Shown in pieces: positions 43,062 through 63,519 of a stretch of 64,000 nucleotides of DNA. This stretch comes from an uncultured Gammaproteobacteria bacterium (GTDB lineage: Bacteria > Patescibacteriota > Microgenomatia > UBA8517). Every line of letters begins with the position of its first letter. Within the stretch, counting starts at the first letter, position 1. The translations under genes were made by a program, and so were the position numbers. The stretch is taken from assembly GCA_964600575.1 (NCBI GenBank), contig CAZRJH010000002.1, forward strand, positions 124,298 through 188,297, in the 5' to 3' direction. The notes beneath the pieces are model-generated. The model saw only the letters and a list, made by a program, of their open reading frames with translations. It searched no databases and was not told the origin of the DNA.

Positions 43062-43895
43062 TTACGATTTTACCAGAGGTTTAACATTAAATAAAGTGGA
43101 GGCACGTTTAATCCACGGGGTAAGACTTCCCCAGCCGCTCATACTAACCTGCTGCCATACATTAATTATAGAGAAAACCAGCCAATAAAGAGCGAGGCCA
43201 GATGGAAACTGAAGTCCAAAAAACAAAGTCATCAAAGGCAGTGTATAGGTCATAGATTGCTGCATCGCAACCTGTATATCATCTGCTTCGGATTTTGTCT
43301 TTTTAGCAATCTTCTTTTCTTCCTCGATATAAGGTGTGGTTATTTTTACAGACAAAAACTGGGCTACTGTAGCCAAAATAAGAAAAAGCCCCGGCAATGG
43401 AAAAGGAACTCCTGAAACCTTAAATGAGTCGGGTTTACTTATGTCTAGATATAAAAATCTTGTGTTGAGTTGCTCGTTGGTTGCAAATTTCATACTGGGG
43501 TACAAAAGGTTGTTAATTTTTGCGGTTGCCTCTCCCCCGCCAGCCAAAGCGGTTGTAAAAACATTAAAAAGTGCTATCAAAACAAAAAATTGAAGTAAAT
43601 ACGGTAAGCATCCGGCCGTAGGATTAATTTTATTTTCTTTGTAAAGATTTGCTTGGGCTTTAGAAAATCCCATCTTGTCGTTTCCAAACTTTTTTCTAAG
43701 TTTGGCTAACTGAGGTTCGAAAGCTTTTATTTTCTTCATTGATTCCAAATACGGTTTGGTTAAAGGTCTCAAAAGAAAGATTAAAGCTACGCTAAAAAAC
43801 AAAATCGCTAAACCCAAATTACCTCCCAATACCTTGTAAAAAAGTATTAGTCCGTTTGTTAACGGCTGAACAAGAAGCAGAGTAAAAATATTCAT
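43062..43895 (-). CDS. yidC: Membrane protein insertase YidC (short form)
   Basis: 277 aa with 5 TM helices. The conserved first TM/loop pattern is present (LLVQPLTNGLILFYKVLGGNLGLAILFFSV). Confidence 0.9.
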   Translation of the reverse strand: MNIFTLLLVQPLTNGLILFYKVLGGNLGLAILFFSVALIFLLRPLTKPYLESMKKIKAFEPQLAKLRKKFGNDKMGFSKAQANLYKENKINPTAGCLPYLLQFFVLIALFNVFTTALAGGGEATAKINNLLYPSMKFATNEQLNTRFLYLDISKPDSFKVSGVPFPLPGLFLILATVAQFLSVKITTPYIEEEKKIAKKTKSEADDIQVAMQQSMTYTLPLMTLFFGLQFPSGLALYWLVFSIINVWQQVSMSGWGSLTPWIKRASTLFNVKPLVKS

Positions 43896-44689: not shown

Positions 44690-44698
44690 TGTGGATAA
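44690..44698. promoter_or_regulatory. DnaA box (TGTGGATAA = TTATCCACA) in the rpmH-dnaA divergent region
   Basis: Exact match to the DnaA-box consensus, upstream of the dnaA start. Confidence 0.6.
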
Positions 44699-44786
44699 CT
44701 TATTAAAAAGTACTAGTACCGAATACGCTAAAAAATTATCTAAACCTCCCATAAACTGCTCAGGAATTGTGGCGTCTGAACCTAAT

Positions 44787-46151
44787 ATGACTACAAAGGA
44801 AATTTGGAAAGAAGTCTTGGATATAGTTAAAATTTCTGTGTCTGCCGCGACTTTTTCCACATGGTTTTCACAAACCCACTTATCGTCTATCAACGAGACC
44901 GAAGACCGGGCAATTTGTGAAGTAGGTTGCAGCACCTTTTATTCCAAAAATACCATTGAGGCAAGATATTTTGGACTAATTCAGGACTCGTTGATGAAGG
45001 TTTTGGGGAAAAAATGTGATTTACTTTTGGTTGTAAAATCCAATCCAGACACCACAAAAGAACAAGCCCACAAACCCGACCCTTTGTTTGGAGAAGTCTC
45101 AATCGGCGAGAACAAGCTTAAAGATAACCAAATAAGAGCCAGAATTAGGCCGAGTTTCACTTTTGAAAATTTTGCCGTTTCTTCCTCGAACCAAATGGCG
45201 CATGCGGCCGCAGAGGCTGTGTCACAAAGTTTAGGCTCTGCTTACAACCCGCTTTTCCTTTGGGGTGGGGTGGGTGTCGGAAAAACACATCTTATGGTAT
45301 CTGTGGGAAACTACTCATTAAAAGAAAACCCTGACCTTAAAATACTTTTTTGCACAGGTGAGGACTTTACTAACGACATAGTTGAGGGGATAAGAAATAA
45401 AACAACTCAAGCTTTTAGAAATAAATATAGAAAACTGGATTTATTATTAATAGACGATATCCAGTTTATAGCCGGAAAAGACACTGTTCAGGAAGAATTT
45501 TTTCATACATTTAATGCCGTTACCTCGGCAGGAGGGCAAATTATTTTAACCTCCGACAGACCGCCTTCCGAAATAAGCAAATTAGAAGAAAGGCTAAGAA
45601 GCAGGTTCGAGGCAGGTTTAATAGTAGATATAGCACCGCCTGATTTTGAACTCAGATGCGCCATAACTCAAATTAAAGCAAAAGAAAAAGGCATTGACCT
45701 TACAATGGACCAAATCCAAATGCTAGCAGCCAACGCAGAAGGGGCAAGAAAAATAGAAGGTTTACTCACTAAATTACTAACAGAAATTCACCTTAAAAAA
45801 GTCCCAGTAAGCGATTTAGTAATAGAAAACACTCTAGGAAAAGGTGTAGAGTCGCCCGGTAAGTCAAAAAGGAGTACACCGGGGGAGGCAATTGACGCGG
45901 TTGCAAGATACTATCAGGTGGGTAAGAGATTGCTTTTGGGGGATTCAAGAGCTAGACCGATTGCCAGACCCAGGCAAGTGTTGATGTATCTTTTAAGGAC
46001 CCATTTAGGAATCCCGTTGGAGGAGGTTGGTAAGGTTGTAGGAGGACGCGACCACACTACAGTTATGCACGCTGTGGAAAAAATAACAGAACTAGCCACG
46101 CAGGATGTGCAAATCCGTGAGGATATTATGAGTATAAAAACTAAAATTTGA
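44787..46151 (+). CDS. dnaA: Chromosomal replication initiator DnaA
   Basis: Walker A is GGVGVGKTHLM. An AAA+ sensor and a C-terminal DNA-binding HTH (GGRDHTTVMHAV) are present. The start is set at MTTKEIWKEVL. Confidence 0.95.
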   Translation: MTTKEIWKEVLDIVKISVSAATFSTWFSQTHLSSINETEDRAICEVGCSTFYSKNTIEARYFGLIQDSLMKVLGKKCDLLLVVKSNPDTTKEQAHKPDPLFGEVSIGENKLKDNQIRARIRPSFTFENFAVSSSNQMAHAAAEAVSQSLGSAYNPLFLWGGVGVGKTHLMVSVGNYSLKENPDLKILFCTGEDFTNDIVEGIRNKTTQAFRNKYRKLDLLLIDDIQFIAGKDTVQEEFFHTFNAVTSAGGQIILTSDRPPSEISKLEERLRSRFEAGLIVDIAPPDFELRCAITQIKAKEKGIDLTMDQIQMLAANAEGARKIEGLLTKLLTEIHLKKVPVSDLVIENTLGKGVESPGKSKRSTPGEAIDAVARYYQVGKRLLLGDSRARPIARPRQVLMYLLRTHLGIPLEEVGKVVGGRDHTTVMHAVEKITELATQDVQIREDIMSIKTKI

Positions 46152-46449: not shown

Positions 46450-47562
46450 ATGAAACTAACAGTACTTCAAGAAGATTTTGCTAAGGCGGTGAACATAGCC
46501 TCAAGGTTCGCAAGCCCAAAGGCTCAACTTCCAATATTAGGAAACATTTTGATAAGTTCCGAAAAAACCAAAGTTAGAATAGTCTCAACAAATTTGGAGA
46601 TATCAGCTTCCGTGTCACTTGGTGCAAAAGTAGAAGAAGAGGGAGAGATAAGTATTCCTTCTAAAGTTTTAAACGATCTTGTTAGCAATCTTCCTAAAGA
46701 AACGATAGAAATATCTTCAAAAGAAGAGCAGCTTAAAGTTTCTAGCCCCGGTTTTTCATCTAATGTTTTGGGGATGTCTGCTGTTGATTTTCCCAAGGTA
46801 CCTGCGGGCATAGATAAAAGCAAAGCGGTACCATTACCTTCCAAAGAATTTTCGGACGCTTTATCGAAGGTTACATTCGCTGCATCAATGGACGAAACAA
46901 GACCTGTTTTGACAGGTGTTTTGTTTATAAAAGATAAAAAGAATTTGAACTTAGTAGCCACCGACGGCTTTAGACTGTCTAAAAAAACAGTAAATGTGGA
47001 AAATGATGACGAATTTAAATTAATACTCCCAAAGCTTATTCTTAACGAAGTGGCAAGAGATTCTAGTTCGGAAATGTTTTTTTCATTTGACCAAAACGAT
47101 AAACAAGCTGTATTTTCAAGCGGCGATATCACTTTGACATCAAGACTTCTGGAAGGGGAATACCCCGATTTTGACAAAATTATTCCTAAAAATTCATCTT
47201 TGAGCATATCTGTTGATAAGGAAGATTTTTTAAGAGCGGTTAAGTTAGCATCTGTTTTTGCAAGAGAAGCTTCTAATATTGTTAAGATTAAAGTTCTTAA
47301 AGAATCAATAAAAGTATCTGCTGAAAGCGGTAGTTCCGGGAGCCAAGAAATGAGTGTAGAGGCAAAGATTCAAATAAATGAAAAAGGGAACGAAAACATG
47401 GAGGTTAGTTTTAATTATAAGTTTTTGGAAGATTTTCTTAATTCGATCAAGAGCGATACTTTAACAATTGATTTGTCGGGTCCAAGCTCCGCGGGTGTTT
47501 TTAGAGAAGCCTCAGACTTAGAATATCTTCATTTAATAATGCCTGTGAGGGTTCAGAGCTGA
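46450..47562 (+). CDS. dnaN: DNA polymerase III beta sliding clamp
   Basis: The N-terminus is MKLTVLQEDFAKAVNIASRFAS. The three-domain length (370 aa) and the position after dnaA fit. Confidence 0.9.
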   Translation: MKLTVLQEDFAKAVNIASRFASPKAQLPILGNILISSEKTKVRIVSTNLEISASVSLGAKVEEEGEISIPSKVLNDLVSNLPKETIEISSKEEQLKVSSPGFSSNVLGMSAVDFPKVPAGIDKSKAVPLPSKEFSDALSKVTFAASMDETRPVLTGVLFIKDKKNLNLVATDGFRLSKKTVNVENDDEFKLILPKLILNEVARDSSSEMFFSFDQNDKQAVFSSGDITLTSRLLEGEYPDFDKIIPKNSSLSISVDKEDFLRAVKLASVFAREASNIVKIKVLKESIKVSAESGSSGSQEMSVEAKIQINEKGNENMEVSFNYKFLEDFLNSIKSDTLTIDLSGPSSAGVFREASDLEYLHLIMPVRVQS

Positions 47563-48173: not shown

Positions 48174-51020
48174 CTAGGGTGCGAACATTACATTCTTGGC
48201 AAATTGGTAATGTTTGGGATATTGACTGGCGTAATTTGAAATACAGCGTACCCAAGACGAAGTACCGACATAAAGTGCGTTACCCTCGGCCATGCTTTCG
48301 TATTCGTTTCCTACTGTATTGGAATATGAGCAGATTGCCCATTCTGATGTGGGAACTTGTTGTTTAAATTGACTAACTGTGCCTCCATTGATGTTTTGTA
48401 AATGGTGTGAGACCTCATGAGTAAGAATGTAAAGAGCATCTGACTGACTTCTAATTCCACATTGGTTGTAATTAATATCACAACTGCCATTATGGTCGTG
48501 TCTTGCGTAAATAGTTTGGTTACAAAGACCGTTGCCTATTGGATTTGGACTTTTTGTTGTGTAACACATATTAATCTCTCCTCCCGCACAAACCTTTTGA
48601 GCAAAATTTGGATAAGTTCCTGCCAGCGTGGCTGATGCAGAATCTAAATTTGCTTTAAAGTTAGCAGGCCAAGGTTCGTTGTTGTCTACTGTTTTAAAAC
48701 AACCCAGAGGACAGTCTCCAAAACAAACGGAGGCTGACCCAGTTTCCGAAACCTCACCTCCCTCGTTGGAGCTTGCAGTTACCGTAATAGAATCGCTAAC
48801 CAAAGAATCATTGAAACTAGAGTTGTAGTTCGAAGTAAAACTGAATGTAAACGGAGCGCCTGCTGTAATGGTTGCGGGTGCTGCAGGTATTTCTTCCAAA
48901 TTTTTGCAGTCGATTATGCCACCAGCTTTTTTAACGGCGCTGCAAGTATTTGTAAAGCTTATACCTGTAAGGTCATCCTTTTTGGCAGTAATGGTTATGG
49001 TGTAAGTAACAGAAGTGGGGGACGCAAGCTGCCCCGAAGGTTCAGCTTTTTTTTCTACAGACATATAGGGGTTGGTGTTATTTAGACTGGAAGAACTTCC
49101 TCCTGGTGGAATCAGGTAGGCACTATTGTTTATGATTACTAAAATTAAGGCTATCATTAGCGGAAAACCGATAAGAAAACTGATAACAGGTAATCCCAAC
49201 TGTGTCAGGAAAGTTGCCCAGGCTATACTAAAAACTGTAAATATAGAGGAGGCTGTTCCGGAAAAAGCCTGACCCACACCTGTTAGACCTCCTGTCATAA
49301 ATCCAAAAGCACCCAAACCAAGTCCTGCTCCAATTAAGGCGCCAGAAATACCACCTGAAATCAGCATACCTGCAACAGCACCTCCTAATGCTATTGTTGT
49401 TCCGTCTATTTTTTTTGCGTTTTTAGACATCCAGTCTAAAGCTTTTGGACCAATCACAGCAGAAACCAACCCAACAACAGCACCGATAATCAAACTAACA
49501 CCACCTGTTACCGGTGCAGCTGCTGCTGATGCGGCTGCTACGGTGGTTTCCGTAGCAGCAACAGTGCCAACAGTTGCTGCCGTTGCTGCAGTTGCAGTTG
49601 CCGCAGCACCTGCTCCTTCGGCTACTGCAGCTGTAACTCCCCCTACTACTGCTGTTCCTTCTGTCGCCAATACGCCACCGCCAATGGCTGCCGTTTCTGT
49701 TGATATCGCCGCCGCCTGAGTTGTTGCAAGAGCTCCTGATACAGCATCTGCTCCAACTTCTGTACTAATACTGGCTGCTGCTTGTGTTACGCCAAAATCC
49801 ATTCCAGTTATCTGACCAGCCCAGCCAAAAGTTGGTCCGTATCCAAATTCGACTGCCACTCTTCCAAAAAATGTGGTACCCTCCCATGCAATAGGCTCAC
49901 CTAGTCCGTAATAACTTAGGGCTGCTTGGATAACTGGTGCGTTGTAGGCTTCGGCAAGGGCTCCTGATTCAGGAATACTGCTTTCGATCCATGTACCAAC
50001 TTGCCTTAGAAAAACAGACTTAATCTCACCAGAACCAACTTGGGAAATCGTATCAAAAACAAAATCTTGTCGTTGAAGAAAATCAAGTTGCTTTCCTGTT
50101 ACGTTTCCTAAATCATATTCCTCGAATCCAAGCCTTGGTGTGCTGGATATTTCGATTGCCACTCTATCCAAATCTCTTGGACCTAGATAATTCGAGGCAA
50201 AATCTTCTCCAAAAGAAGAGCTAATGATTTTTCTATCGATTTGAAATTCAACAAGCTCAGTTGTAGAAACATTTATTGCGGAATCTCTGAAAGTCTGAAT
50301 ATCGTCATTTTCGATTGACTCCAGCAGGTTAGTATCGTTTGAAATTTTATTTATTGTTACGGCCTCTACAGCAAGTGAATTTCCTCTTAAGTTTTCAACT
50401 ACCCTAACAGCAGCCCTAGTAGAGAGTGCTTTAACCGCTTCTTCATTTGCACCCTGTGGAACATTTGCTTTAATCCTTTTTTCAATTTCAGAAGCCAACT
50501 CCCTTGTTAATTCTCTGGGGTTGTTTTGTGCAGAGGTTCTTAGTGTTTCTGATGTGGGTTGTTTATCTGCAGACAAGGGGTCCGCCTGAGGTGTTGAAAC
50601 TCTTCTGTAAATTTTTCTCCCTTGAGTTTTTTTATGTAATTCCTCTTGTCTTTTTATGGAAGCTTCGACTTGAACTTTTGCATTTTCAGCGCTTTTTCTG
50701 ATAGCTTCTTCCCTTTTAACTCTTTCTGCTTCCATTGCCTCCCTTTTTGCTTTGTCAGGGAGATTTTCTTCTGCTTTTGGTGTTTCTGATCCTATTTTTT
50801 CAAGTACAAATTGAGCATTCTTGACAGTCTCTTTGTCGCCAATTTTTATATCTACACCTGTTAAATTTTTAACTGTTTCTATAAAAGACTGTCTATCGCT
50901 CCATTTAAAATTTCCTGAAACGAATGGCTTATCGCTAACATACACGGCGTTTTCAGGGAAAAAATGATCAAACGCAAGCATTAACTCTTCAACATTTTTC
51001 TTTGTTAATAAATTTGCCAT
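48174..51020 (-). CDS. Mosaic 948-aa membrane protein: cytoplasmic coiled-coil/charged N-region, Ala/Gly/Thr-rich glycine-zipper TM block, and an extracellular Cys-rich domain with an HEXXH motif
   Basis: The first ~370 aa are a charged region (e.g. EAMEAERVKREEAIRKSAENAKVQVEASIKRQEE). An AGT-rich hydrophobic block spans ~aa 370-620. A beta-rich segment then leads to the C-terminal ALYILTHEVSHHL with many Cys. Confidence 0.6.
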   Translation of the reverse strand: MANLLTKKNVEELMLAFDHFFPENAVYVSDKPFVSGNFKWSDRQSFIETVKNLTGVDIKIGDKETVKNAQFVLEKIGSETPKAEENLPDKAKREAMEAERVKREEAIRKSAENAKVQVEASIKRQEELHKKTQGRKIYRRVSTPQADPLSADKQPTSETLRTSAQNNPRELTRELASEIEKRIKANVPQGANEEAVKALSTRAAVRVVENLRGNSLAVEAVTINKISNDTNLLESIENDDIQTFRDSAINVSTTELVEFQIDRKIISSSFGEDFASNYLGPRDLDRVAIEISSTPRLGFEEYDLGNVTGKQLDFLQRQDFVFDTISQVGSGEIKSVFLRQVGTWIESSIPESGALAEAYNAPVIQAALSYYGLGEPIAWEGTTFFGRVAVEFGYGPTFGWAGQITGMDFGVTQAAASISTEVGADAVSGALATTQAAAISTETAAIGGGVLATEGTAVVGGVTAAVAEGAGAAATATAATAATVGTVAATETTVAAASAAAAPVTGGVSLIIGAVVGLVSAVIGPKALDWMSKNAKKIDGTTIALGGAVAGMLISGGISGALIGAGLGLGAFGFMTGGLTGVGQAFSGTASSIFTVFSIAWATFLTQLGLPVISFLIGFPLMIALILVIINNSAYLIPPGGSSSSLNNTNPYMSVEKKAEPSGQLASPTSVTYTITITAKKDDLTGISFTNTCSAVKKAGGIIDCKNLEEIPAAPATITAGAPFTFSFTSNYNSSFNDSLVSDSITVTASSNEGGEVSETGSASVCFGDCPLGCFKTVDNNEPWPANFKANLDSASATLAGTYPNFAQKVCAGGEINMCYTTKSPNPIGNGLCNQTIYARHDHNGSCDINYNQCGIRSQSDALYILTHEVSHHLQNINGGTVSQFKQQVPTSEWAICSYSNTVGNEYESMAEGNALYVGTSSWVRCISNYASQYPKHYQFAKNVMFAP

Positions 51021-51022
51021 TT

Positions 51023-53029
51023 TTACTTAGTGTCGTATGCACGAGGGTTGAGCCTTGCCATTTCCTCGGGATTGGTTGTTATCAACCTGTTTTCTTCCTC
51101 GGAAGCAACCACTCTTATTGGGGCATGGTGTGGTCCTGCAAAAAATATACCTTCTCCTACATTTGCCGCCAAAAGAAGCTGCTTTTCTCCTTGTGATAAA
51201 TAGAAAACTTCGCCTATTCTATCGATTGCGGCAGGCGATTGTTTTAAAAGTACCTGCATAGCACTGTTGGTAACTATGGCTTTACCAATATCTTGCGCCA
51301 AAAAGTCTTCTACATCCTGTGTAATGGTTGTAAGACCTAAATAATATTTACGGGCTCTTTTGACAACGCTCCATAAAAACTGTGCAGTGTCCGGATATCT
51401 CATCATATGCCAAGCCTCATCAACCAAAAGGACTCTCTTTTTAATATCTTTTTTAACACGGGTCCAAATGTAATCAAGAATTATAAACATTGCAATTGGA
51501 CGTATGGCGTCTTGCATGTCTTTAACGGAGAATACTGTAAACGGATTGTCTAGATTAATGTTTGTTTGTTTATCAAAAATTCCCACAAAACTCCCGCGTA
51601 CAAACTTTTCGATACGGGCTGCAAGGTCGAGTGCGTCGGGAACCTCCATACCTATTAGTGTTTTATATAAATCTTCCATTAAAGGTGGCTCTTTTCCTTG
51701 AGTATCGGGGTCCATTGTTATTCCTTTGTTTTTGTATGTCATAACCAACGACCGGTCGAGTAGTGCATCTTGAGTAGGGGATATTTGTCCCATGATGACT
51801 TTCATTAGAGAGTGGAGTGAAAGTATTTTAAGACCAAGCTGGTTCTCTCCCTCTTCTCTTATCTGAGCAAGGTCAAATGGATTGATTTTTGCATCGGAAT
51901 TATAAGAAAAAGAGATGTATTCACCACCAACCGCTTGGGCTAGAGGTTTGTATTCGTTTTCGGGGTCTAAGATTATAGCCTCCGTTCCCGTCATCAAAGA
52001 ACGAAGTGCCTCGAGCTTAACAAAGAATGATTTACCTGCTCCTGAGGTTGCAAAGATAACCATATTGCTGTTTTGCAAACTAAATCTGTCAAAAATAATA
52101 AAGGATTCGTTTTGTGAGTTGATTCCGTATAAAACCCCCCGGTCGCTGGAAAGTTCAGTTGATGTTAAGGGGAATGTTGTAGCAACGGATGTTGTATCCA
52201 TGTTTCTGGTTATACTTAACCTATCCATTCCAAACGGAGCAGTTGAAAGGAATCCCGACTCTTGATCTAAAAGTGCGTGCTTAGAAACGATAAGCAGTGA
52301 ACCAAGTTGTGACTCGATTTGTTTTGTCACATGGTTAAGTTCATCTACTGAGTTTGCCGGTATGGTTATATAAAAGGAGAATTCATAAAATCTTTCTATT
52401 CCCTTAACAAGCTGCTCCTGCAAAGCTTTCGCGTCTTCCAATTTTGCGGAAGTAGAGGGGTCGACTATTTTTCCGCGTTCTATATCTGTCGAAATTTCTG
52501 CTTCCATTTCGGCGATTTTGCGCCTAAGGTCATCCAGAACCGATTTTCCGTCTACAGGATAAACATAAAAAGATATATCCAAACTGGAATCAAAGTTAAC
52601 GACGGGCTCCAGCCATCCGGGTGAAACAAATCTAGGATATCCTCCTACAAAAATTGTACGAAAATACACATCGTTGATTTTTATATAATCAAAATCTTCC
52701 TCGATTGTTTGAGATGAGATTACATCTAAAACATTGGCGCCTTGAGTAACTGCCAGTCCCGGATTTGTATATTTTTGCTTGGCTTGTTTGATTTCCGTCT
52801 GAGTTGGTATGTTTGGTGCTACAGGGCTCGCTTGTGGTGCCGGTTGTTGTGCTACGGCAGGCGGAGTCATAGGTTGAACGGGTTGGGGTGGATCTTGCTG
52901 TGCAACATTCTGAGGAACTGGGGCAATTTGTCCGGGTTGTGGATTTGGATTTAAAGGTGGTGGTGTTATCCCTAAAGCAGAGGGTGGAACAGGGTTTTGT
53001 GGTTTAGAAAAAGGTAATTTTATATTCAT
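51023..53029 (-). CDS. VirB4/TrbE/CagE-family T4SS ATPase (central and C-terminal part) with a Pro/Gln-rich N-terminal extension
   Basis: YFRTIFVGGYPRFVSPGWLEPVVN matches the VirB4 'YRRHLSLKSLPAE...' segment. Walker A is ATSGAGKSFFVKL and Walker B is VLLVDEAWHMM. Confidence 0.8.
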   Translation of the reverse strand: MNIKLPFSKPQNPVPPSALGITPPPLNPNPQPGQIAPVPQNVAQQDPPQPVQPMTPPAVAQQPAPQASPVAPNIPTQTEIKQAKQKYTNPGLAVTQGANVLDVISSQTIEEDFDYIKINDVYFRTIFVGGYPRFVSPGWLEPVVNFDSSLDISFYVYPVDGKSVLDDLRRKIAEMEAEISTDIERGKIVDPSTSAKLEDAKALQEQLVKGIERFYEFSFYITIPANSVDELNHVTKQIESQLGSLLIVSKHALLDQESGFLSTAPFGMDRLSITRNMDTTSVATTFPLTSTELSSDRGVLYGINSQNESFIIFDRFSLQNSNMVIFATSGAGKSFFVKLEALRSLMTGTEAIILDPENEYKPLAQAVGGEYISFSYNSDAKINPFDLAQIREEGENQLGLKILSLHSLMKVIMGQISPTQDALLDRSLVMTYKNKGITMDPDTQGKEPPLMEDLYKTLIGMEVPDALDLAARIEKFVRGSFVGIFDKQTNINLDNPFTVFSVKDMQDAIRPIAMFIILDYIWTRVKKDIKKRVLLVDEAWHMMRYPDTAQFLWSVVKRARKYYLGLTTITQDVEDFLAQDIGKAIVTNSAMQVLLKQSPAAIDRIGEVFYLSQGEKQLLLAANVGEGIFFAGPHHAPIRVVASEEENRLITTNPEEMARLNPRAYDTK

Positions 53030-53038
53030 TTTTAGATT

Positions 53039-53746
53039 TTATTTTTTATCCATTACGACTTCTGGCTCTTTTTTAACCGCGGGTCTTTCGGGATTGTAAA
53101 TTGTATAAAAAAGGTTAACCAGCTCCGGAGTGGTTAGTTGTCTGAATTTTATACCAAGTCTACCCGCCTGTCTTACTAAATGATCGCGTCTGGGGTACAA
53201 AGTGATTTTTGCCTTTTTAATTACAAAAGATTTTGCATAAGGCAAAGGACCGGTTCTTCTTGTAAGTGATTGAACAGATTTGCCTACACCCAGTTCTAAG
53301 GGAGAAAGATACAAAACCACAAAAAACCTTTTACCTAAAACATTTTTCTTTTTGACGGACTCGGAAATAAAGCCTCTGTAGTTTGTCATAAGCCTTATTA
53401 AGAGGGGGTGTGTAAGTTTTTTGGCTTGTTCATCAAGAAAATTAAGATAAGAGCTTATATCCTTTCTGGAGGTTCTAACAATAATTTGTACGGAAAAAGA
53501 TAAAGAGTTAATCATTGCGGCATATGCTGCAATGACTGCCTCCTGCTCTTTTTCGCTTAAGAGTCCAAAGTTTAAAGAGGTTGATTCCATAACAAGAGCT
53601 GCGCCCCCGTCTTTGTAAATCAAAATGTCGTTTGTAATGTCTGCAATTGGTAAATGATCTTGGGTTGTAGCCGTTATTGGTTTGTCGGGAATAGAAATAA
53701 AAGGAACTTTTGGAAAATTTGATAGGTCCGGTGGTTTTATTGCCAT
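53039..53746 (-). CDS. VirB4 N-terminal domain, encoded as a separate ORF in frame with the downstream ATPase ORF
   Basis: DHLPIADITNDILIYKDGGAALVMESTSLNFGLLSEKEQEAVIAAYAAMINSL aligns with the VirB4 N-terminus (YLPY..HLSDHIVLLEDGS..AFELEEIE..NTLLRNI). The stop TAA at 53039-53041 is in frame with ATG 53029. Confidence 0.6.
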   Translation of the reverse strand: MAIKPPDLSNFPKVPFISIPDKPITATTQDHLPIADITNDILIYKDGGAALVMESTSLNFGLLSEKEQEAVIAAYAAMINSLSFSVQIIVRTSRKDISSYLNFLDEQAKKLTHPLLIRLMTNYRGFISESVKKKNVLGKRFFVVLYLSPLELGVGKSVQSLTRRTGPLPYAKSFVIKKAKITLYPRRDHLVRQAGRLGIKFRQLTTPELVNLFYTIYNPERPAVKKEPEVVMDKK

Positions 53747-53748
53747 AG

Positions 53749-54891
53749 TTAGTTAACTCCGACTGCCATAGGGTTTTGTACGACTGCGGGTGTCTGTTGT
53801 GGTGGAGCCTGTGCTACCGCCGAATGTTTACCTTGAATCAGTATTGGCGGTATAAGGTTTCCTGTTGTTTCAAAAGTATAAGGAATAAAGTCGAATCCGT
53901 CTTTTTCGGTAATGACATCATATCTACCAATCTCCAAGGGTGTTACGGTTATAAAATGCCCTGCTTTGTTGCTTCTTAATGCCCTTATCGGTCTTCCTGC
54001 GGAATCTCTTATTTCCATAATAGCTCCCTCGATTATTTTTCTGTTTTCATCCACAACCTGGCCGACAACAACATTTGGTATTGTCGGCGGGCTGGGAGGT
54101 GCCGCGTCAATTGAAAACAAAGCTTGTTTTGCCGAAACAATTTCTTCACCAGCAATAGTGGGTGCAACCTGGTGTGTTGTTATCTCCGGAGCAGATATAA
54201 GCGGGTCCGCTTTTCTTTCTTCTACAACCAAATGCGGAATATTAGACACGACTTTGATTGGCGCAGTTTGTGGTATCTGGAGTTCCTTTTGCGGTTCGAC
54301 GGGCTTAGGTGCTACCGCGACATTTTCTTTTGGCATAGTAAGCGGTACAACGGGGGGCTGTGGAACAGTGGGGGGTGGGGAAACGGGTGCGGCAGGAACT
54401 CCAGTAGAAACAGGGCTGACAACACCTGTAAACATACCTGTTAGAGTTGCCAAAAATCCTTGCTCTGCCATGTCCATTTTTGCGGAAGAGCCTGATTTTT
54501 GATTTGCAACGGATAAATAGTCGTTAAGTGCTTTTTCCTGAGGTGCCGCAGTTTCTACAGAAACAGTGCTTGCAGGTTCGTCCAAAAAAAACTTCGTGGC
54601 AACTTTTGTTTCTTGCCAATAGAATTCGGTTGGGGCGTATATCGCCCTAAAAAAAGCAAAAATCCACTTTTCCAAAGGCCGTTCTTCTAAGGGTAAAAAT
54701 GCCAAACAAACACCAAGGATTGCCGAAACGATTACAAACGGCCATTTAATTATTCCTATGAGTGGTGCGGAATAAAAAATTAGGGCGACCAAAAATCCAC
54801 CCGCAAGTTGAAAAAATTGCTTAAGGGTCATTTCTCCAACCAAACGAAATTGATAGGAGCTTATTTGTTGTGGTATTGCGTGTTGTTGCAT
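53749..54891 (-). CDS. PrgI/VirB3-like T4SS membrane protein fused to a Pro-rich linker and a C-terminal transthyretin/CarboxypepD_reg-like beta-sandwich domain
   Basis: The N-terminus is FRLVGEMTLKQFFQLAGGFLVALIFYSAPLIGIIKWPFVIVSAILGVCLAF (PrgI-like, two TM). The C-terminus is VVGQVVDENRKIIEGAIMEIRDSAGRPI...GRYDV. Confidence 0.5.
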   Translation of the reverse strand: MQQHAIPQQISSYQFRLVGEMTLKQFFQLAGGFLVALIFYSAPLIGIIKWPFVIVSAILGVCLAFLPLEERPLEKWIFAFFRAIYAPTEFYWQETKVATKFFLDEPASTVSVETAAPQEKALNDYLSVANQKSGSSAKMDMAEQGFLATLTGMFTGVVSPVSTGVPAAPVSPPPTVPQPPVVPLTMPKENVAVAPKPVEPQKELQIPQTAPIKVVSNIPHLVVEERKADPLISAPEITTHQVAPTIAGEEIVSAKQALFSIDAAPPSPPTIPNVVVGQVVDENRKIIEGAIMEIRDSAGRPIRALRSNKAGHFITVTPLEIGRYDVITEKDGFDFIPYTFETTGNLIPPILIQGKHSAVAQAPPQQTPAVVQNPMAVGVN

Positions 54892-55441: not shown

Positions 55442-58156
55442 ATGGCAGGTGGACCCGAACAGGGCGGAATGGACCCCAAACTAGAAGAAGCTCTCAAAAT
55501 GGAGATGTCTTTGCGTAACGAACAATCTAGGGGCATGTATTTGTCCGATTTGGACAGATTTAAAAAGAGTCTTACCGAACTAGATATGGCCAAAACAGAG
55601 GAGGAGAGAGAAATGGCCAGGGAGCGTGCCTACGAGCATTTTGACGAGATCAAAAAACAAGAGCTGGGTCACCTTGAATTTATAACAGACAAACATATGA
55701 GTTTTGAGTTTGCGTTCCCTTACGACTCCAGACAAGGCGCTGTCTGGTTTATGGCAATGCGAAGGGATTTAGAGGATACGCTTGCCCTAGACGAAGACCA
55801 TGGAGGGTTCAAAGAAGATAGTGAGGCTAGAAAGTGGGTAGAAAACTTATATGACGCTGTTGTTTGGGGTGATGGAAATTATGGTGTACAGGAAGGCTTG
55901 AATACAATTAATTATTACTTCGGAGGATTCGACGCAATGGCTGCAGGGCTTCAGTCAATGAAACTTAGAATCACATCCACAAAGATGGCGGATGCAAACT
56001 CCAGAGATGTTAGAGGTGCTGGTTCAAATGAAAAAAGTGCAGAAGGTCTAATGGTAGCGAAAGGAAAGGTTTTGGGTAGTAAAAAGCTTGAAGTTCCTCA
56101 TACATACTTCGATAAAAAACTAAAGAAGAAGGTTACCGAAACAAGACAGGTCGATTGGTTAGTTAAACAAAAAGAGGCGGTTGAAAATATTAGGGAAATT
56201 GGCGTAAGCGGACAAGACGAGTTTTATTATTGGAGAAATCTTGTTGCAGCAGTTGCTCAGTATGATTATGCACAGCCCAACAAGGATGGCTTAATGCGTG
56301 CCAATAAGGTTAGACAAGGACTGGAGGTTGATTTTGTGGTTCAGCTTTTTGGCAAAAAAGAAGCTGACGGAAGGACTCCAAAGATGGTTGCTAGTGAAAA
56401 AGGTGTGGCTCCTGACTCAATCTTAAGTTTCTTTACAATGGCTGACACAAAGAAAAACAGACGTGAATACAGGCAGCTTATGATGGCTTTAATGGAATGC
56501 AAAGCTATGGATAAGTTAGCTGCGTGCAACGAAGAAACTGATCCCAACAAACCTCCGCGAGTAAACTTGGCCCAAATGCAAGTTTTACTTAACGAGGTTA
56601 AGGATGCTAAAGACAGGATAGCGAAAAGAGAACAAAAGAAGGCTCCTTCTACAGAAGATAGAATCAGATCTGTGGTAGTTAAAAATGGTTTGATTTTTGA
56701 TATTGCTTCGGGCGGCTCCGGTCCTATGGCTTGGCAGTTTGAGTATAAAATGACCAGGAACAAAAGGGGTAAGGATGGCAAGGTAATCCCTGGAACCGGC
56801 AGGATGGTAAGAAGAGTAGATTTTGGAGGCATCAATCAAGCAGGAGATTGGTACACACCTGAGTTTTGGCTACTTCATAACCTTCTCTACGACAAAACAA
56901 GCAGACTCAGGTCCAAAAAAATGCTTGCGACTCCTGATAGGTATCGAAAGGCGGTTCTGCAGGAAAAAAGTCCTTTCGAAAAACCTTTATATTCTCTAGA
57001 AGAAGCTAAAAAAATTGATCCTTGGCAATATAACGAAGTACAAAAAATTGTTGCGGAAGATGATGAGGAGATATTGGTTAGTGGTGACGACGACATGTTT
57101 GATCTTTTTATGGCAGGAGGCCTTAACGAAAAACAAAAGGCCGACATGCGAAAGGCGGGAAGACTCATGAAAGCCGGTGATTGGAGGGAGCAAAATAAAT
57201 TTAGAATAGATCCTGTTATAAGAGAGGCTCTCAAAGACGCAGTTTGGTTCCAGGAAATACCATATCCGATTGGAACCAATTCTGACGGCTCGCCCGTCTT
57301 CCCGCTTTTTGCTACATTTATCCCTCCCAGGTTTAAGATGAGCTTTTTTGACCATGTTAAAACGAGGGATGAAAAAGGAAGGCAGGTTACAATGCAAGAT
57401 AGGCTAAGAAACGCAGACTTAAAGCTTTCTGAAGTTGACTATGAGAACGACCTAAAAGAACATCAGTGGGATAGGTGGCTTGTGAACATGAACATGGGTG
57501 AACGTTTGTTGAGGTTTGCTGCAGAACCGGGTGATCCAAGAGCAGAAGAAGCTATCCTTGGAGGGACCGGAACACTCAAGGAGGGAATCAAAAGAACGGG
57601 ACTTCACAACAGAGACTCGTTTTATGCGTACGAAGTAGAGGTTCCTGATGCAAGTGCTCCCGGAGGTAAACGTAAAGAAACCCGTTATGCACCGGGGTCG
57701 TTTTTTGAATTAGTTTTAGTCGGCCAAATGAATATGTTGCATGCAGTTAAAGGTAATCCAAGAGCGAGAGATGCATCCGACGCAATTCCAACCGACCTTA
57801 TCAGCCCTGCAATAGAGGACGATGAGTTCTCCAACAGGTGGGAGAACATTGTTATGCCTGAGTATATTAATGCGGCTAAGTATTTGACTCCCGACACAGG
57901 CGAAGATGAGGGAACTCCTGAGTTTTACAACGAAACCTTGGCAATATTAATGGCTGTGACGGGCAATTCACTTTTTAGAATGGCACTTGAAGGGGGATCT
58001 AACTCTGTACACGACAAGATGGTTGTCGTTAATCAACTAAGAACAATGAAAGTTGACCGAAAGAAGCGTTTGGTTAAGAGAGGAGCGGTTAACTTTACAG
58101 AGAACAATCCCAATACTCAGCTCTCTGCAAAAGTTGCTTACTCTAGTAGAAAATAA
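55442..58156 (+). CDS. 904-aa soluble protein of unknown function, encoded antisense to the T4SS-like operons
   Basis: Long clean ORF with no TM, P-loop or relaxase His-triad seen by eye. Rich in Arg/Asp/Glu/Met/Trp. A promoter-like TTGACT-N17-TATAGG and a TATAAT lie upstream. Confidence 0.7.
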   Translation: MAGGPEQGGMDPKLEEALKMEMSLRNEQSRGMYLSDLDRFKKSLTELDMAKTEEEREMARERAYEHFDEIKKQELGHLEFITDKHMSFEFAFPYDSRQGAVWFMAMRRDLEDTLALDEDHGGFKEDSEARKWVENLYDAVVWGDGNYGVQEGLNTINYYFGGFDAMAAGLQSMKLRITSTKMADANSRDVRGAGSNEKSAEGLMVAKGKVLGSKKLEVPHTYFDKKLKKKVTETRQVDWLVKQKEAVENIREIGVSGQDEFYYWRNLVAAVAQYDYAQPNKDGLMRANKVRQGLEVDFVVQLFGKKEADGRTPKMVASEKGVAPDSILSFFTMADTKKNRREYRQLMMALMECKAMDKLAACNEETDPNKPPRVNLAQMQVLLNEVKDAKDRIAKREQKKAPSTEDRIRSVVVKNGLIFDIASGGSGPMAWQFEYKMTRNKRGKDGKVIPGTGRMVRRVDFGGINQAGDWYTPEFWLLHNLLYDKTSRLRSKKMLATPDRYRKAVLQEKSPFEKPLYSLEEAKKIDPWQYNEVQKIVAEDDEEILVSGDDDMFDLFMAGGLNEKQKADMRKAGRLMKAGDWREQNKFRIDPVIREALKDAVWFQEIPYPIGTNSDGSPVFPLFATFIPPRFKMSFFDHVKTRDEKGRQVTMQDRLRNADLKLSEVDYENDLKEHQWDRWLVNMNMGERLLRFAAEPGDPRAEEAILGGTGTLKEGIKRTGLHNRDSFYAYEVEVPDASAPGGKRKETRYAPGSFFELVLVGQMNMLHAVKGNPRARDASDAIPTDLISPAIEDDEFSNRWENIVMPEYINAAKYLTPDTGEDEGTPEFYNETLAILMAVTGNSLFRMALEGGSNSVHDKMVVVNQLRTMKVDRKKRLVKRGAVNFTENNPNTQLSAKVAYSSRK

Positions 58157-58205: not shown

Positions 58206-60020
58206 TTAGTGTCTTTCTGTCCCACTTTTAACGTTCTTGACGACACTGTCAACTCTATCGCCAACATACCTGTTCTGTCGTAGTTTTTCAACAGATCTCT
58301 GCAAGAAGTCGAGCTTGCTCATGTCAGTTCTATTCGCTTCCCAGTCTCTCATATACTTAGCCAATCCTTCTTGGCTGTTAAGTTTTCTAAGCATTTCCAC
58401 TCTATCACGAGCACCCGATGCGCCATATGCCCAACCGACAGGTGCCAAAGCTTCGCCTATCGCAGTTCCATATGCAAACGGCCTGCCGCTCATAAGACCT
58501 TGCAGGACCTCTGTTGCTTTTGGAATTAATGTAAATAGTACAAAGCTTACACCGAGCATTAAAAGCCCTGTTCCGCCGCCTGTAGAGGCGCTGGCACTCA
58601 AAAGGGGAGGCCATGCAGAGTTGTATACAAAGAATCCTCCAACATTCGCGATTGTGGATTGTCCAAATAAAAAGCCTAATATTCCTGTTCCAAGATTACT
58701 ACCAAGCCCCTCCCAGGCCAAAACAACTCCTTGTTCCAAAAAGACATACGAGAAAAATATTAAAACACTTGTGAGAACAAAAACCCCCAAGTTAGTAGCA
58801 TAACTTCTTAACCAAGCCCCGAATCCGAAACTGGGGAACATGACGCCGGCGACAATTTGAACAGGTGCAAATATAGTTAAAAGAATTATGTTGGTAAAGG
58901 CTTTTAATAGTCCGAACATCGTCTTAAACAATTGAACAATGATTACGATGACTATAACTATAGCCAAAACTATAACTATAATTCCGGTAATAGGGGTTAA
59001 GATTGCAAACAAGGGTGCCAAAATAGTACCAACAACTCCAATGACGGCGGCTCCTAGCACCCCAACTGTTAAGAAGAGAGTAATAATGAGTGATATTGGG
59101 AACAAGACAAGATAAATTAATAAAAGTCCGAGTAGTCCTAACTCGACACCACCACCACCTCCACCAACTCTACCTGCGGTGATGAATTCGAACACAGTGG
59201 AAGCAGAAACGCTTCCACCAAATGGAATAAAGCCTTTTCCTAACAGTGCAAACAAACCATAAAGAACGTACATCAAATCGATCATAAAACCCGCAATAGC
59301 ATAGGAGAAAGTTACTAAAATCAAGGCACCGATTAGCTTGGGAAGTGCTGTTTGCACAGAGATAACAACTTGTGGCGAAATTTTGACTCTAAACATTATC
59401 ATAAATGCAAAAGCGATCGCTGCTATAACAAAAAGACCGAAAGCTAAATCTCTTGATGTTTGCCACATTGCTTGAACAGGTTGTAATGCGTTGAATCCAA
59501 AACCTACAACTTGTGCATGCGCTTCGGGAACTATGCTAAAGTTGTTTACTTTCTGTCGAACATAGTTAACTCCAGACATTGGCCTGTTTTTGTCAAAAAT
59601 TAAACTCAAAAGTGGCTTTTCGGGAGCCTTTGGCCTATTTGCCATTTCCTGAAGTTGTTCCGGTGTTGCCGAAAGTAAGCTGGCACAAGCATTAACATTG
59701 GCTGAGTTTTTAAACAGACAGCTTAAAAGTTTTTGATTGCTGGTTTGATTAACCAAAAAAGAAAGAAGTCCGTAAACAACCCATTGAACCTGGGCTGCGG
59801 TATATCTTTCTCCAAAAATTTCACTTTGGTTGCTGTCGTCGTAAACTTTGGAATACCAATCCTGGAAGCTGGAGTTATACCAAGTGCCAGCTGGGGCAGG
59901 GGTGGGGGCTGCAGCTTTTGCCGCCATAAAAGGCGCAAAAGAAAATAGCATTACCCAAGCTGCCATCAAAGAAATTAAGAACTTTTTTAATAACATGTGA
60001 GATTTAAGAAAGAAAGGCAT
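58206..60020 (-). CDS. VirB6/TrbL-like polytopic T4SS channel protein (putative)
   Basis: 604 aa. A signal peptide and a ~170-aa external domain are followed by ≥6 TM helices with Gly-rich loops (GGGGGVELG) and a cytoplasmic C-tail. The assignment rests on topology and context. Confidence 0.45.
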   Translation of the reverse strand: MPFFLKSHMLLKKFLISLMAAWVMLFSFAPFMAAKAAAPTPAPAGTWYNSSFQDWYSKVYDDSNQSEIFGERYTAAQVQWVVYGLLSFLVNQTSNQKLLSCLFKNSANVNACASLLSATPEQLQEMANRPKAPEKPLLSLIFDKNRPMSGVNYVRQKVNNFSIVPEAHAQVVGFGFNALQPVQAMWQTSRDLAFGLFVIAAIAFAFMIMFRVKISPQVVISVQTALPKLIGALILVTFSYAIAGFMIDLMYVLYGLFALLGKGFIPFGGSVSASTVFEFITAGRVGGGGGGVELGLLGLLLIYLVLFPISLIITLFLTVGVLGAAVIGVVGTILAPLFAILTPITGIIVIVLAIVIVIVIIVQLFKTMFGLLKAFTNIILLTIFAPVQIVAGVMFPSFGFGAWLRSYATNLGVFVLTSVLIFFSYVFLEQGVVLAWEGLGSNLGTGILGFLFGQSTIANVGGFFVYNSAWPPLLSASASTGGGTGLLMLGVSFVLFTLIPKATEVLQGLMSGRPFAYGTAIGEALAPVGWAYGASGARDRVEMLRKLNSQEGLAKYMRDWEANRTDMSKLDFLQRSVEKLRQNRYVGDRVDSVVKNVKSGTERH

Positions 60021-60169: not shown

Positions 60170-62839
60170 TCAGTTTCCGTGAGCAACATCCCAGACACAA
60201 GCATTGTGACTCTGGCTTGAATAACGGTTGCTGATTGTTTCGCAGGTATCTCCAACAGGGCAGGCGGCAGCTAGTCCTCCCAAAGCACATCCATTTTCCA
60301 CAGTCATACACATACTTGTATAACCGCTTTCGTAGACTTTTATGGCAGACTCGTATTGTTCATCCGTCCAGCTACAAGAGGAGGGTACGGGCGCACTTAG
60401 TTTTATTCCAAAACAAGTTGGGGGAAGGCCGCCGCCGCCATCTGCACTGTCGTGAAGGTTATAGGCCGCCGCGAATATTGCATCCAACAAATTACATTGA
60501 CTAAATTCTTTTCTGGCAGGATCGATTTTTTGCAGGTCGGCTTTTATTTTGGGAACTGTTCTTTCGAAAACGGTTCCGTTAAAGCCCATAAAATGATCAT
60601 CTCCGGTCTCATTACATCCAGGAATCTTGGTGCATGTTGCCCAATTTTTAACATTTTGATCCGTCCATTCGTATCTTCCTGGGTTAAAAAGACCTTCTCC
60701 AAACATTTGAGCCACTAATAAATTTGGCGGTACCTTGTATGTTTGTGCAGCCGCAGAAATAATATCTTCCAGTGACTTGGGTAAGTTTCCAACTCTGGAG
60801 CTTACCCCTCCTAATTGACAAGAACCCGAGGCTTTGGGGAGTTCCGGAAGCTCTCCGCAAACAACATTTGTGCAGGATTGTCCGTTAACAGGCTGAGCTC
60901 CGCCGTAACCTTTTGGCCTTAAAGCTGTTTGGATTCCGTTTAAAAAATATTCTAAAACTCCCCCGTAATGCGGGTAGAAAACTTTTGCTTCTAAAGCATC
61001 CGTCTTGTTTGCAAACGATCCCATGCGGCTGTCATCGGGAAGTATCACCTGTGTAAGCCTTATTCCCTGACTACTTGGATCGGTAATTTTATAAGTTGCT
61101 TTGGATTCGGCAGGAATATCTGCAATACAAGACACAGGAGCATTCGCACCTGTTTTTGGGTACATTCTTCTAAATATTGCGTCAGGACCTGCTACAGTGT
61201 TATTCCATATTTCGTCCGCAAATGGGGTTTTGCTTACAGTAGGGATTGTTGCGTAAACTTCGGATTCACAAGTTGCAACCATTTCACAAACCGTTTGACC
61301 ATATGTTGGGCTTGTGGGATTGTTGTCTTCTCGACATTCTTCGTGTGGTTCACTACACTGAATTTCGCCGACATCGTATTGGACATCAACTTCTATCCAT
61401 TTTTTGGGAGACTCAAAGTTAACATCGTCCCCGGGGTTGCTTCTGGAATTTAATATTTTACAAGGGGCTCTGTTAACTTCGACATCGCTCAAGCTTGAAG
61501 CCGCGGCGTTTGAAGAACCACCAGCCGGTGCCATTGGAACGAAGGTCTTTTTTAACAAGCTGGTAAGTTCGTTGTTTTCGTCTGCATGGGGAAACCACTG
61601 ACGAAATGCCGGTTTGATAATTTGGTAGTCCGATTCTACTATTTCGGCTTTGGCTGCACTCACATGTGCAAAAAGAACCATATGTCCTCCTGGTATGTCT
61701 CTATTGTTGGCAAGGGGGATGTAGGGGAATAGGTCAGCATATTTATTGGGAACGAGCAAATTTTCGAAACAGGCAAGTCTATCGATAATCGGAAGAATAA
61801 AACAGGTTTGACCCCTCCATTCGTAATATGCTTTTTGATAATCTACATTTCTTGCGAACGGTTTTCCTGTGCCATCATCCCAAGGAAGCGGCGGTCGTCT
61901 AAGATTCCAGTGGTTACCGATTGAAGCTTCGATTGCACCCGTAGAAACAAAAGGAAAGAGAACATTGTAAGCATTTACTGCGGTCCTGATGGTGGCGTTT
62001 GATAAAACATTAAATATGGATAAATTACCGTTCCAGTCTTTGAGTCTGTAAACATCGCCGCTTGCCCCGGCACCTCCGCCTTTGTAACACTCCTTAGGGG
62101 TTGTTTTACCGACATTAAACAGGTCTACAATCCAGCCCAAAAGGCCACCTCCGCCTTCACCTGCACAAACTACAATTTGATTGTGGTTCATTTTGTCGGG
62201 CGAAGATTCGCCTGTTTCGTCGTCTGTTGCGCTTGTCGATTCGTCGGGGGATTCTATTGTTTTTACTCTTGCAGCGTCTTGAATTACAGAAGGTAGGAGT
62301 CTCCTAAGAGGCCCGGAATAGTTAACTTGTTGGGAGATGTCGCTTTTTGGGTATTCCGCTTTGTCGCTGACACCGTTAAGGTACCAAGCAACATAGTCGT
62401 TAACTTTTGTTCCGTCGTCCATTGTGCCAGTGCCATTAACGCTATTAGAAGTTAACTCTGTGTTTCCCATGATAGGGAGTTCCGCATCCAACATTTCTAC
62501 AGCAATCTTCTTTTCGTAGTGAGTTATTGTTGGGGTGCATGTTGGATCGCCTTTGTAAGGACATTTGACTGTGTTTAGATATATAACTACAGCGTTTCCG
62601 CACCAATAAGTTTTTGGAGCATCGCCACAAGGAGAGGCTTGGTATGGGCGACCACTACTGTATTCGGGATTCTTTTCGTCTTCACAGGGAATGTTTCCTG
62701 ATCTTGGAATTGCATCGGCCGCATTGAGCGTGTTTATTTGGAGCGTTAAAAAAACAAAAGCAACACCAAGAACTAAAGTTGTTAACGAATAAAGCAAACT
62801 AATAAGTTTTTCCGGTTTTTGGAGTTTTTTGTTCTGCAT
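60170..62839 (-). CDS. Secreted Cys-rich 889-aa protein with a C-terminal lysozyme-like/lytic-transglycosylase-like region (VirB1/PrgK-like candidate)
   Basis: N-terminal signal/TM. More than 40 Cys. LLVAQMFGEGLFNPGRYEW resembles the SLT motif LLAAIAYQESRFNPNA, with Gly in place of the catalytic-adjacent Ser. Confidence 0.55.
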   Translation of the reverse strand: MQNKKLQKPEKLISLLYSLTTLVLGVAFVFLTLQINTLNAADAIPRSGNIPCEDEKNPEYSSGRPYQASPCGDAPKTYWCGNAVVIYLNTVKCPYKGDPTCTPTITHYEKKIAVEMLDAELPIMGNTELTSNSVNGTGTMDDGTKVNDYVAWYLNGVSDKAEYPKSDISQQVNYSGPLRRLLPSVIQDAARVKTIESPDESTSATDDETGESSPDKMNHNQIVVCAGEGGGGLLGWIVDLFNVGKTTPKECYKGGGAGASGDVYRLKDWNGNLSIFNVLSNATIRTAVNAYNVLFPFVSTGAIEASIGNHWNLRRPPLPWDDGTGKPFARNVDYQKAYYEWRGQTCFILPIIDRLACFENLLVPNKYADLFPYIPLANNRDIPGGHMVLFAHVSAAKAEIVESDYQIIKPAFRQWFPHADENNELTSLLKKTFVPMAPAGGSSNAAASSLSDVEVNRAPCKILNSRSNPGDDVNFESPKKWIEVDVQYDVGEIQCSEPHEECREDNNPTSPTYGQTVCEMVATCESEVYATIPTVSKTPFADEIWNNTVAGPDAIFRRMYPKTGANAPVSCIADIPAESKATYKITDPSSQGIRLTQVILPDDSRMGSFANKTDALEAKVFYPHYGGVLEYFLNGIQTALRPKGYGGAQPVNGQSCTNVVCGELPELPKASGSCQLGGVSSRVGNLPKSLEDIISAAAQTYKVPPNLLVAQMFGEGLFNPGRYEWTDQNVKNWATCTKIPGCNETGDDHFMGFNGTVFERTVPKIKADLQKIDPARKEFSQCNLLDAIFAAAYNLHDSADGGGGLPPTCFGIKLSAPVPSSCSWTDEQYESAIKVYESGYTSMCMTVENGCALGGLAAACPVGDTCETISNRYSSQSHNACVWDVAHGN

Positions 62840-63189: not shown

Positions 63190-63519
63190 TTATACAGAGG
63201 GGATAACCAAGGAGAAGATATCGATGTGGAAGAATGTGTTGATTAAAGCAACAATTGCCCAGGCTGCGAAAACTATAACCAAGCCTACTAAAGCTGCTGT
63301 AATTTGATTTCTAGCAGACTCCGTTTGAGCTTTGTCTCCGCCTGAAGCAATCCATTTGATACCTCCAATGACCAAAATAAAGAAGAAGACGATAGCTGCT
63401 ACAACTACTGTGAGTCTGATTAATGCCGAAATAAGACCAGGAATAGTAAGTTTGGCCAAAGGAGCAAACTGGGTTCCTTCACCCGGCTGCAAATTAATTT
63501 GTGCTAAAAGGTTGTTCAT
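63190..63519 (-). CDS. VirB2/TrbC-like T4SS pilin paralog 2
   Basis: 109 aa with the motif IGGIKWIASGGDKAQTESARNQITAALVGLVIVFAAWAIVALI. Confidence 0.55.
   Translation of the reverse strand: MNNLLAQINLQPGEGTQFAPLAKLTIPGLISALIRLTVVVAAIVFFFILVIGGIKWIASGGDKAQTESARNQITAALVGLVIVFAAWAIVALINTFFHIDIFSLVIPSV

Follow-up and report, generated by a model that had tools for sequence, protein, structure and literature searches.

Is the virB4 gene in this genome broken by a stop codon, or does the cell normally build this ATPase of the type IV secretion system (T4SS) from two proteins? The question is raised by two open reading frames (ORFs) on the minus strand of the 64,000-nucleotide stretch of DNA analysed here, which we call the window. 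ORF1 (53746..53039, including its TAA stop codon at 53041-53039) encodes 235 residues and ORF2 (53029..51023, with its ATG at 53029) encodes 668 residues. Between the TAA of the first and the ATG of the second there is only an A-rich spacer of 9 nucleotides, AATCTAAAA (AAT CTA AAA, 53038-53030), and both ORFs are read in one frame. The first-pass annotation of the window had described the pair in this way, with both Walker motifs in the longer product, and the sequence confirms the layout, the coordinates and the frame, with Walker A (SGAGKS) found at ORF2 residues 330-334 (52028-52042) and Walker B (LLVDE) at residues 534-538 (51416-51430). It had left four explanations side by side: a genuine two-polypeptide VirB4, stop-codon readthrough or recoding, pseudogenisation by a recent nonsense mutation, and an error in a homopolymer. 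The comparative data described below support the first of these and contradict the other three. The window very probably carries a normal chromosomal T4SS locus of Patescibacteria, of a Microgenomatia/Woesebacteria-like type, in which VirB4 is encoded as two separate polypeptides, while the shared reading frame is a chance outcome of the spacer length. The arrangement of a TrsD-like gene followed by virB4 is a conserved one and has already been published (Quiñonero-Coronel et al., Microb Genom 2025; PMC12102498).

ORF2 is, by its profile matches, a VirB4-family T4SS ATPase. It reaches 367.7 bits against the NCBIfam model NF045971 for the CD1110 family of VirB4-like ATPases (cut-off 325, E 1.2e-109) and 100.5 bits against Pfam P-loop_TraG (threshold 25.8), with AAA_10 also matched, and the VirB4 C-terminal domain of PDB entry 4AG5 matches residues 318-651 (E 4.2e-47). 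The RecA-like C-terminal ATPase domain delineated by these matches takes up residues 318-668 (52078..51026). It is preceded by a part of the VirB4 N-terminal domain at residues ~96-317 (52744..52079) and, at the very start of the chain, by a Pro/Gln-rich, presumably disordered tail at residues 1-95 (53029..52745). The company that ORF2 keeps is that of a T4SS as well, with two T4SS_pilin genes in the window and a PrgI-like gene upstream, the order of PrgI-like gene, TrsD-like gene and virB4 being kept in relatives. The N-terminal domain is, however, incomplete in this chain: the CD1110 profile is covered only from position 181 of 752 and the NCBIfam model VirB4_plasma from position 290 of 894. 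Where is the missing segment then? Alignments to single-chain VirB4s indicate that it is encoded by ORF1.

This is not obvious from direct searches with ORF1. It had no match in our local copy of Pfam, its homologues bearing the precomputed Pfam tag PF26593, a family outside the copy searched, and a profile search of the PDB sequences with the ORF1 family returned nothing meaningful. Two NCBIfam models were matched, both far under their cut-offs: NF041427 (TrsD/TraD), of whose 201 positions 13-142 are covered with E 4.6e-7 and 29.8 bits (cut-off 200), and VirB4_plasma, the Mycoplasma VirB4 model, over positions 103-234 of 894 (E 2.3e-6). Comparison of profiles is more telling. With hhalign the ORF1-family profile aligns to residues 10-175 of the 754-residue single-chain VirB4 encoded on Carboxydocella pCCELLA01 (probability 98%, E 1.2e-13), and by BLASTP ORF2 residues 96-660 follow on at residues 180-750 of that protein (E 2e-85). 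Within P0145, a fused Patescibacteria protein of 787 residues, the match to ORF1 spans 4-199 and that to ORF2 spans 213-767, and on single-chain homologues the two matches abut within 4-14 residues. The fold is consistent with this placement. An AlphaFold model of ORF1 built from a diverse alignment reached a predicted local distance difference test (pLDDT) score of 85, against 53 with close homologues only, and in fold searches the better model shares the N-terminal domain fold of canonical VirB4 (TrwK of R388; PDB 7O42 and 8RTB).

By these comparisons ORF1 is a TrsD-like protein, encoded on its own and remotely homologous to the start of the VirB4 N-terminal domain (the first ~180-200 residues). 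It is remote from TrsD in the strict sense as well, falling outside the staphylococcal TrsD/TraD subfamily as NCBI defines it. Because the alignments to the Carboxydocella VirB4 and to P0145 are contiguous, ORF1 and ORF2 jointly cover one VirB4 architecture, and the break lies within the N-terminal domain, ~180-200 residues into it. The initial assignment of the 235-residue ORF to the VirB4 N-terminal region therefore holds, if remotely, on the strength of hhalign and the fold searches, and so does the expectation that the two ORFs would cover a single architecture without a gap. TrsD has been described as a remote homologue of the VirB4 N-terminus (PMC12102498), and our statement of TrsD-VirB4 homology rests on this description together with the sequence tests given here, the name TrsD being absent from the main text of Guglielmini et al. 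2014 (PMC4027160).

Is the split a peculiarity of this genome? A search for ORF1 homologues in a collection of 5.8 billion proteins gave 1813 clusters of standalone proteins from Patescibacteria. The best 120 of the 1813 are all 225-256 residues long and 76-100% identical to ORF1, and come from Microgenomates, Woesebacteria and other Patescibacteria. The position of the stop codon is kept in most homologues (alignment A1), and the identical 235-residue protein (P0001) is on record from two sources, ncbi and Logan. To look at the junction itself we fetched 19 genome loci and 80 metagenome loci, 86 of which were informative. The TrsD-like and virB4 genes are separate in 82 of the 86 and fused into one gene in the remaining 4, so that the same split, which the first-pass annotation had proposed to look for in orthologous loci, is indeed found there. 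Synteny is equally well kept: a PrgI-like homologue stands directly upstream of the TrsD-like gene in 18 of the 18 related genome loci that have both, and virB4 comes next after the TrsD-like gene in all 17 such loci that are long enough to reach it.

The way in which the two genes meet varies, however, from locus to locus. The frame of virB4 relative to the TrsD-like gene in the 82 split loci is +2 in 36, +1 in 31 and the same in just 15, so the genes differ in frame or overlap in 67 of the 82. Stop and start codons overlap in 39 of the split loci, 20 loci have a spacer of -4 (of the ATGA type in the junctions read), and a Shine-Dalgarno-like motif precedes the virB4 start in 30 of the 82. 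The stop codon of the TrsD-like gene is most commonly TAA (53/82). In the closest relative (L001, 91% amino acid identity) the TrsD-like protein ends in ...EVVMDKK followed by the same TAA as in the window, and the spacer measures 4 nucleotides against 9 in the window; this 5-nucleotide indel puts the L001 genes out of frame. The few differences between L001 and the window just upstream of the stop are synonymous, as read by eye, and the ATG of ORF2 and its first ~20 codons are conserved between the two.

The four fused single-ORF TrsD-VirB4 genes (L056:3889-6658, L065:3994-6739, L072 and L083) deserve a comment. In L056 and L065 the two parts are joined at the same junction by a P/G/S-rich linker of 77-105 residues, and P0145 is almost without a linker. 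Since fused forms exist, the covalent state must be viable, and these forms show that fusion and fission recur at the TrsD/VirB4 junction. Other irregularities were seen in individual loci: the PrgI-like gene of L010 (L010:2922-3967) is broken into two ORFs of 184 and 168 residues, and the VirB4 ORF is much longer in L013 (L013:1730-5326, 1198 residues) and L016 (L016:4677-7106, 809 residues), where it is predicted to carry a C-terminal extension or to be fused to the downstream gene.

How would two polypeptides work as one VirB4? In the window the order of genes on the minus strand is PrgI-like, TrsD-like, virB4 and a gene for a 948-residue membrane protein. The PrgI-like (VirB3-like) membrane protein of 380 residues (54891..53749) is encoded just ahead of the TrsD-like gene, and the 948-residue protein (51020..48174) just after virB4. 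The three spacers of 2, 9 and 2 nucleotides suggest that the four genes form one operon, to which the 948-residue protein would probably belong. Translation would stop at the TAA and restart at the ATG 9 nucleotides downstream, either by coupling or by independent initiation. Relatives have overlapping stop and start codons (the -4 spacers among them) or Shine-Dalgarno motifs at this place. The TrsD-like protein would then bind the VirB4 chain non-covalently, rebuilding the complete N-terminal domain, and might dock on the PrgI-like protein as well. We infer both contacts because the N-terminal domain of R388 VirB4 (residues 15-400) mediates VirB4 dimerisation and is contacted and wrapped by VirB3 (PMC9259494).

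Several points weigh against this picture and should be stated together. No Shine-Dalgarno motif precedes the ORF2 ATG in the window, so that any mode of initiation proposed here is tentative. The fused forms, rare as they are (4 of 86 loci, plus P0145), do occur. The model of two products is built from comparative genomics, and a physical association between a TrsD-like protein and VirB4 is a putative one in every system. Finally, genomes with the two genes in frame may still make a trace of read-through product. For annotation, the pair should be entered as a TrsD-like gene and a virB4 gene; pseudogene, frameshift and recoding site would all be wrong labels. In-frame pairs of this kind may well be flagged as broken genes, by pipelines and human readers alike. 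For the window itself the matter is of little weight. More broadly, the T4SS has been reported as essential for the epibiotic lifestyle of Patescibacteria (PMC12102498, PMC12857230). With VirB4 of Patescibacteria almost always made of two chains plus a disordered tail at their junction, structural and biochemical work on it must account for both.

Among the other explanations, the one that survives best accepts two products but denies that they are parts of one protein. The 235-residue protein would be an independent accessory factor, for example a chaperone-like or regulatory subunit, with a distant likeness to VirB4 but without complementing its N-terminal domain. We find this improbable. 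What is missing from ORF2, whose match to the CD1110 profile starts at 181, is exactly what ORF1 provides, the two abut on single-chain homologues with only 4-14 residues to spare, their adjacency and gene order are strictly conserved, and the fused forms unite them in one chain.

A second possibility, which we rate as very improbable, is that programmed readthrough or recoding at the in-frame TAA yields a full-length fused VirB4, possibly beside the two separate products. The shared frame and the mere three sense codons between TAA and ATG invite such an explanation, and the low-complexity linkers of the fused homologues L056 and L065, at 77-105 residues, are about as long as the segment that readthrough would create here (13 + 3 + 97 residues). 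However, the same frame is found in 15 of 82 split relatives, fewer than the third that chance would give. In the closest relative the frames differ, and in 39 loci the genes overlap. Since conserved recoding would need conservation of the frame, and the frame varies among relatives, there is no conserved recoding at this junction. The identity of the stop codon is also unfavourable, TAA being the commonest one at this position in relatives. TAA is the most efficient terminator in bacteria, and the codon known to be reassigned in Patescibacteria is UGA, in Gracilibacteria and Absconditabacteria, not UAA.

We give even less credence to a recent nonsense mutation that has made a pseudogene of a single-chain VirB4. 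Such a mutation would leave behind a recognisable VirB4 architecture interrupted by an in-frame stop, as is seen here, and the rare fused relatives make a single-chain ancestor or derivative possible. Yet the split is clade-wide, found in 82 of 86 loci and accompanied by more than 1,800 clusters of standalone homologues, and in alignment A1 most homologues keep the stop in place. Neither ORF is disrupted, and both are strongly conserved in hundreds of genomes, with 76-91% amino acid identity to relatives, the differences from L001 near the stop are synonymous (again by eye), and ORF2 has an ATG and an N-terminus of its own that are conserved. The least credible explanation is a sequencing or assembly error that created an artificial stop in this A-rich region: the junction GATAAAAAATAAAATCTAAAAATG is indeed rich in A homopolymers, but the homopolymer indel considered in the first-pass annotation could not fuse the ORFs because they already share a frame (only a substitution in the TAA would do so), the independent genome L001 has an identical ...EVVMDKK ending with an identical TAA after it, and both the identical protein from ncbi and Logan and the split in 82 of 86 relatives' loci point the same way.

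What, then, is the Pro/Gln-rich stretch that follows the break? Residues 1-95 of ORF2 consist of 26% Pro, 15% Gln and 11% Ala, and no tandem DNA repeat, sought as a sign of expansion by slippage, was found in the stretch that encodes them. This region had been read as an insertion of ~95 residues, unusual for VirB4. The comparison with relatives points instead to a variable tail at the junction. When the tail is defined uniformly as the part of ORF2 ahead of the conserved core ...LLDVIxPQSxExDFDYIKINDVYFRT..., it measures 15-98 residues in the 82 relatives, with a median of 42, and its sequence is not conserved. The window and L001, at 97 residues by this rule, are at the long end, and even between these two the conservation of the tail is limited to the first ~20 residues. 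The tail has no counterpart in the alignments to the Carboxydocella VirB4 and to P0145. It is predicted to be a free, disordered N-terminal tail, a long and lineage-specific version of a hypervariable one.

Similar tails are found on the other side of the junction. An exhaustive search of cluster representatives gave 141 relatives with a complete TrsD-like core, only one of them fused to VirB4, and 125 of the 141 carry a C-terminal low-complexity tail of more than 50 residues, rich in P, Q, T, A and S (median 159, maximum 508 residues). Low-complexity tails of this composition thus occur in three places: at the VirB4 N-terminus in the clade of the window (15-98 residues), at the TrsD C-terminus in most other Patescibacteria, and as a covalent linker. 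Across the Patescibacteria proteins, disordered low-complexity sequence at the TrsD/VirB4 junction is therefore a general property and not a peculiarity of this gene. Most TrsD-like proteins from other Patescibacteria lineages (among P0123-P0270) have very long C-tails rich in Q, P, N, S and T, with ~500 low-complexity residues in, for example, P0170 and P0173, which have 705 and 715 residues in total. We also considered whether the tail switches sides, a long TrsD C-tail going with a short VirB4 N-tail and vice versa. The tail lengths turned out to be uncorrelated (Spearman rho 0.015, n=82), and we therefore make no claim that one linker changes sides.

One may speculate that the TrsD/VirB4 boundary is an evolutionarily plastic hinge, where stop and start codons are gained and lost (82 split loci, 4 fused ones and 15 in-frame intermediates) and where tails accumulate. 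We regard this more general idea as unlikely, if worth keeping in mind. The tails could alternatively be products of slippage that are tolerated at free termini. If on the other hand they do work in the essential epibiont T4SS, for example as its flexible tether, spacer or interaction hub, they would represent an undescribed feature of Patescibacteria.

How does the locus compare with known systems? The closest match is the TrsD + VirB4 T4SS of Patescibacteria itself. According to the available passages of PMC12102498, TrsD is the commonest T4SS component in these bacteria, with 2,272 homologues, 1,664 of them associated with virB4, and the genes listed as essential for Ca. Southlakia epibionticum include that of a TrsD homologue adjacent to virB4. 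As in the window, a small TrsD-like gene is described there directly upstream of virB4, with a PrgI/VirB3-like gene before it. The same passages place the T4SS locus commonly near dnaA and dnaN in Microgenomatia and Paceibacteria and report frequent arrays of VirB2-like pilins, and the window agrees in its position near dnaA/dnaN, in the pilin genes nearby and in its Microgenomatia-type host. Nothing essential differs between the window and the system as presented in those passages, which contain no mention of reading-frame relations, variable tails at the junction or rare fused forms. The counts of frame relations, the fused forms and the hypervariable tails given here may therefore go beyond what that source reports.

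Further afield, the staphylococcal TrsD/TraD and TrsE/TraE proteins of the pGO1/pSK41 type resemble the pair in the window in that a ~200-residue protein with remote similarity to the VirB4 N-terminus adjoins a VirB4-like ATPase. That system, compared here via the NF041427 profile, is plasmid-borne, in contrast to the chromosomal and origin-proximal locus of the window. Plasmids of Firmicutes show both states of the junction. On the Pontibacillus plasmid NZ_CP062975 a 274-residue homologue of ORF1 overlaps a 621-residue VirB4 of the CD1110 family. The Bacillus thuringiensis plasmid BTB_502p has the same order as the window, with PrgI followed by a 328-residue ORF1 homologue that overlaps the start of a 661-residue VirB4 ATPase. 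Carboxydocella pCCELLA01, in turn, has both parts in its single 754-residue chain. The Firmicutes plasmids differ from the window in that identity to ORF1 is just 23-29%, the junction is without a long Pro/Gln tail, and the loci are of conjugation type and continue with M23 or DD-metallopeptidase genes. Canonical VirB4, as represented by TrwK of R388 (PDB 7O42, 8RTB), shares with ORF2 the RecA-like C-terminal ATPase domain. Unlike the protein of the window, TrwK is one polypeptide with a continuous N-terminal domain (residues 15-400; PMC9259494), and the system to which it belongs is a diderm one, equipped with an outer-membrane core complex.

The neighbouring genes complete the picture of a T4SS locus. 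It is origin-proximal because yidC (43062-43895, minus strand), dnaA (44691-46151, plus strand) and dnaN (46450-47562, plus strand) adjoin the T4SS genes, as has been reported for Microgenomatia. At the other end two T4SS_pilin genes (Pfam PF18895) lie on the minus strand at 63190-63519 and 63527-63874, and are probably part of a VirB2-like pilin array as in other Patescibacteria. The PrgI-like protein matches Pfam PrgI with E 6.8e-5, slightly below the gathering score. At 380 residues it is unusually long, with one hydrophobic stretch near the N-terminus, then a Pro-rich linker, and at the C-terminus a CarboxypepD_reg/prealbumin-like domain.

The 948-residue ORF downstream of virB4 has no Pfam match. 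A region rich in Ala, Gly and Thr includes at least 4 hydrophobic segments (residues 494-640), a C-terminal HEVSHH (HExxH) motif gives a weak match to Zn-metallopeptidases, and the place of the ORF downstream of virB4 is taken on the Firmicutes plasmids L020 and L021 by M23 or DD-metallopeptidase genes. The protein may represent a diverged component of VirB6-like and/or cell-wall-hydrolase type, which is reported as scarce in Microgenomatia (PMC12102498). Between the virB4 operon and the pilin genes there are three more large ORFs, of 904 residues (55442-58156, plus strand), 604 residues (58206-60020, minus strand) and 889 residues (60170-62839, minus strand). They have no Pfam match at E <= 0.01 and may represent further divergent components of the T4SS.

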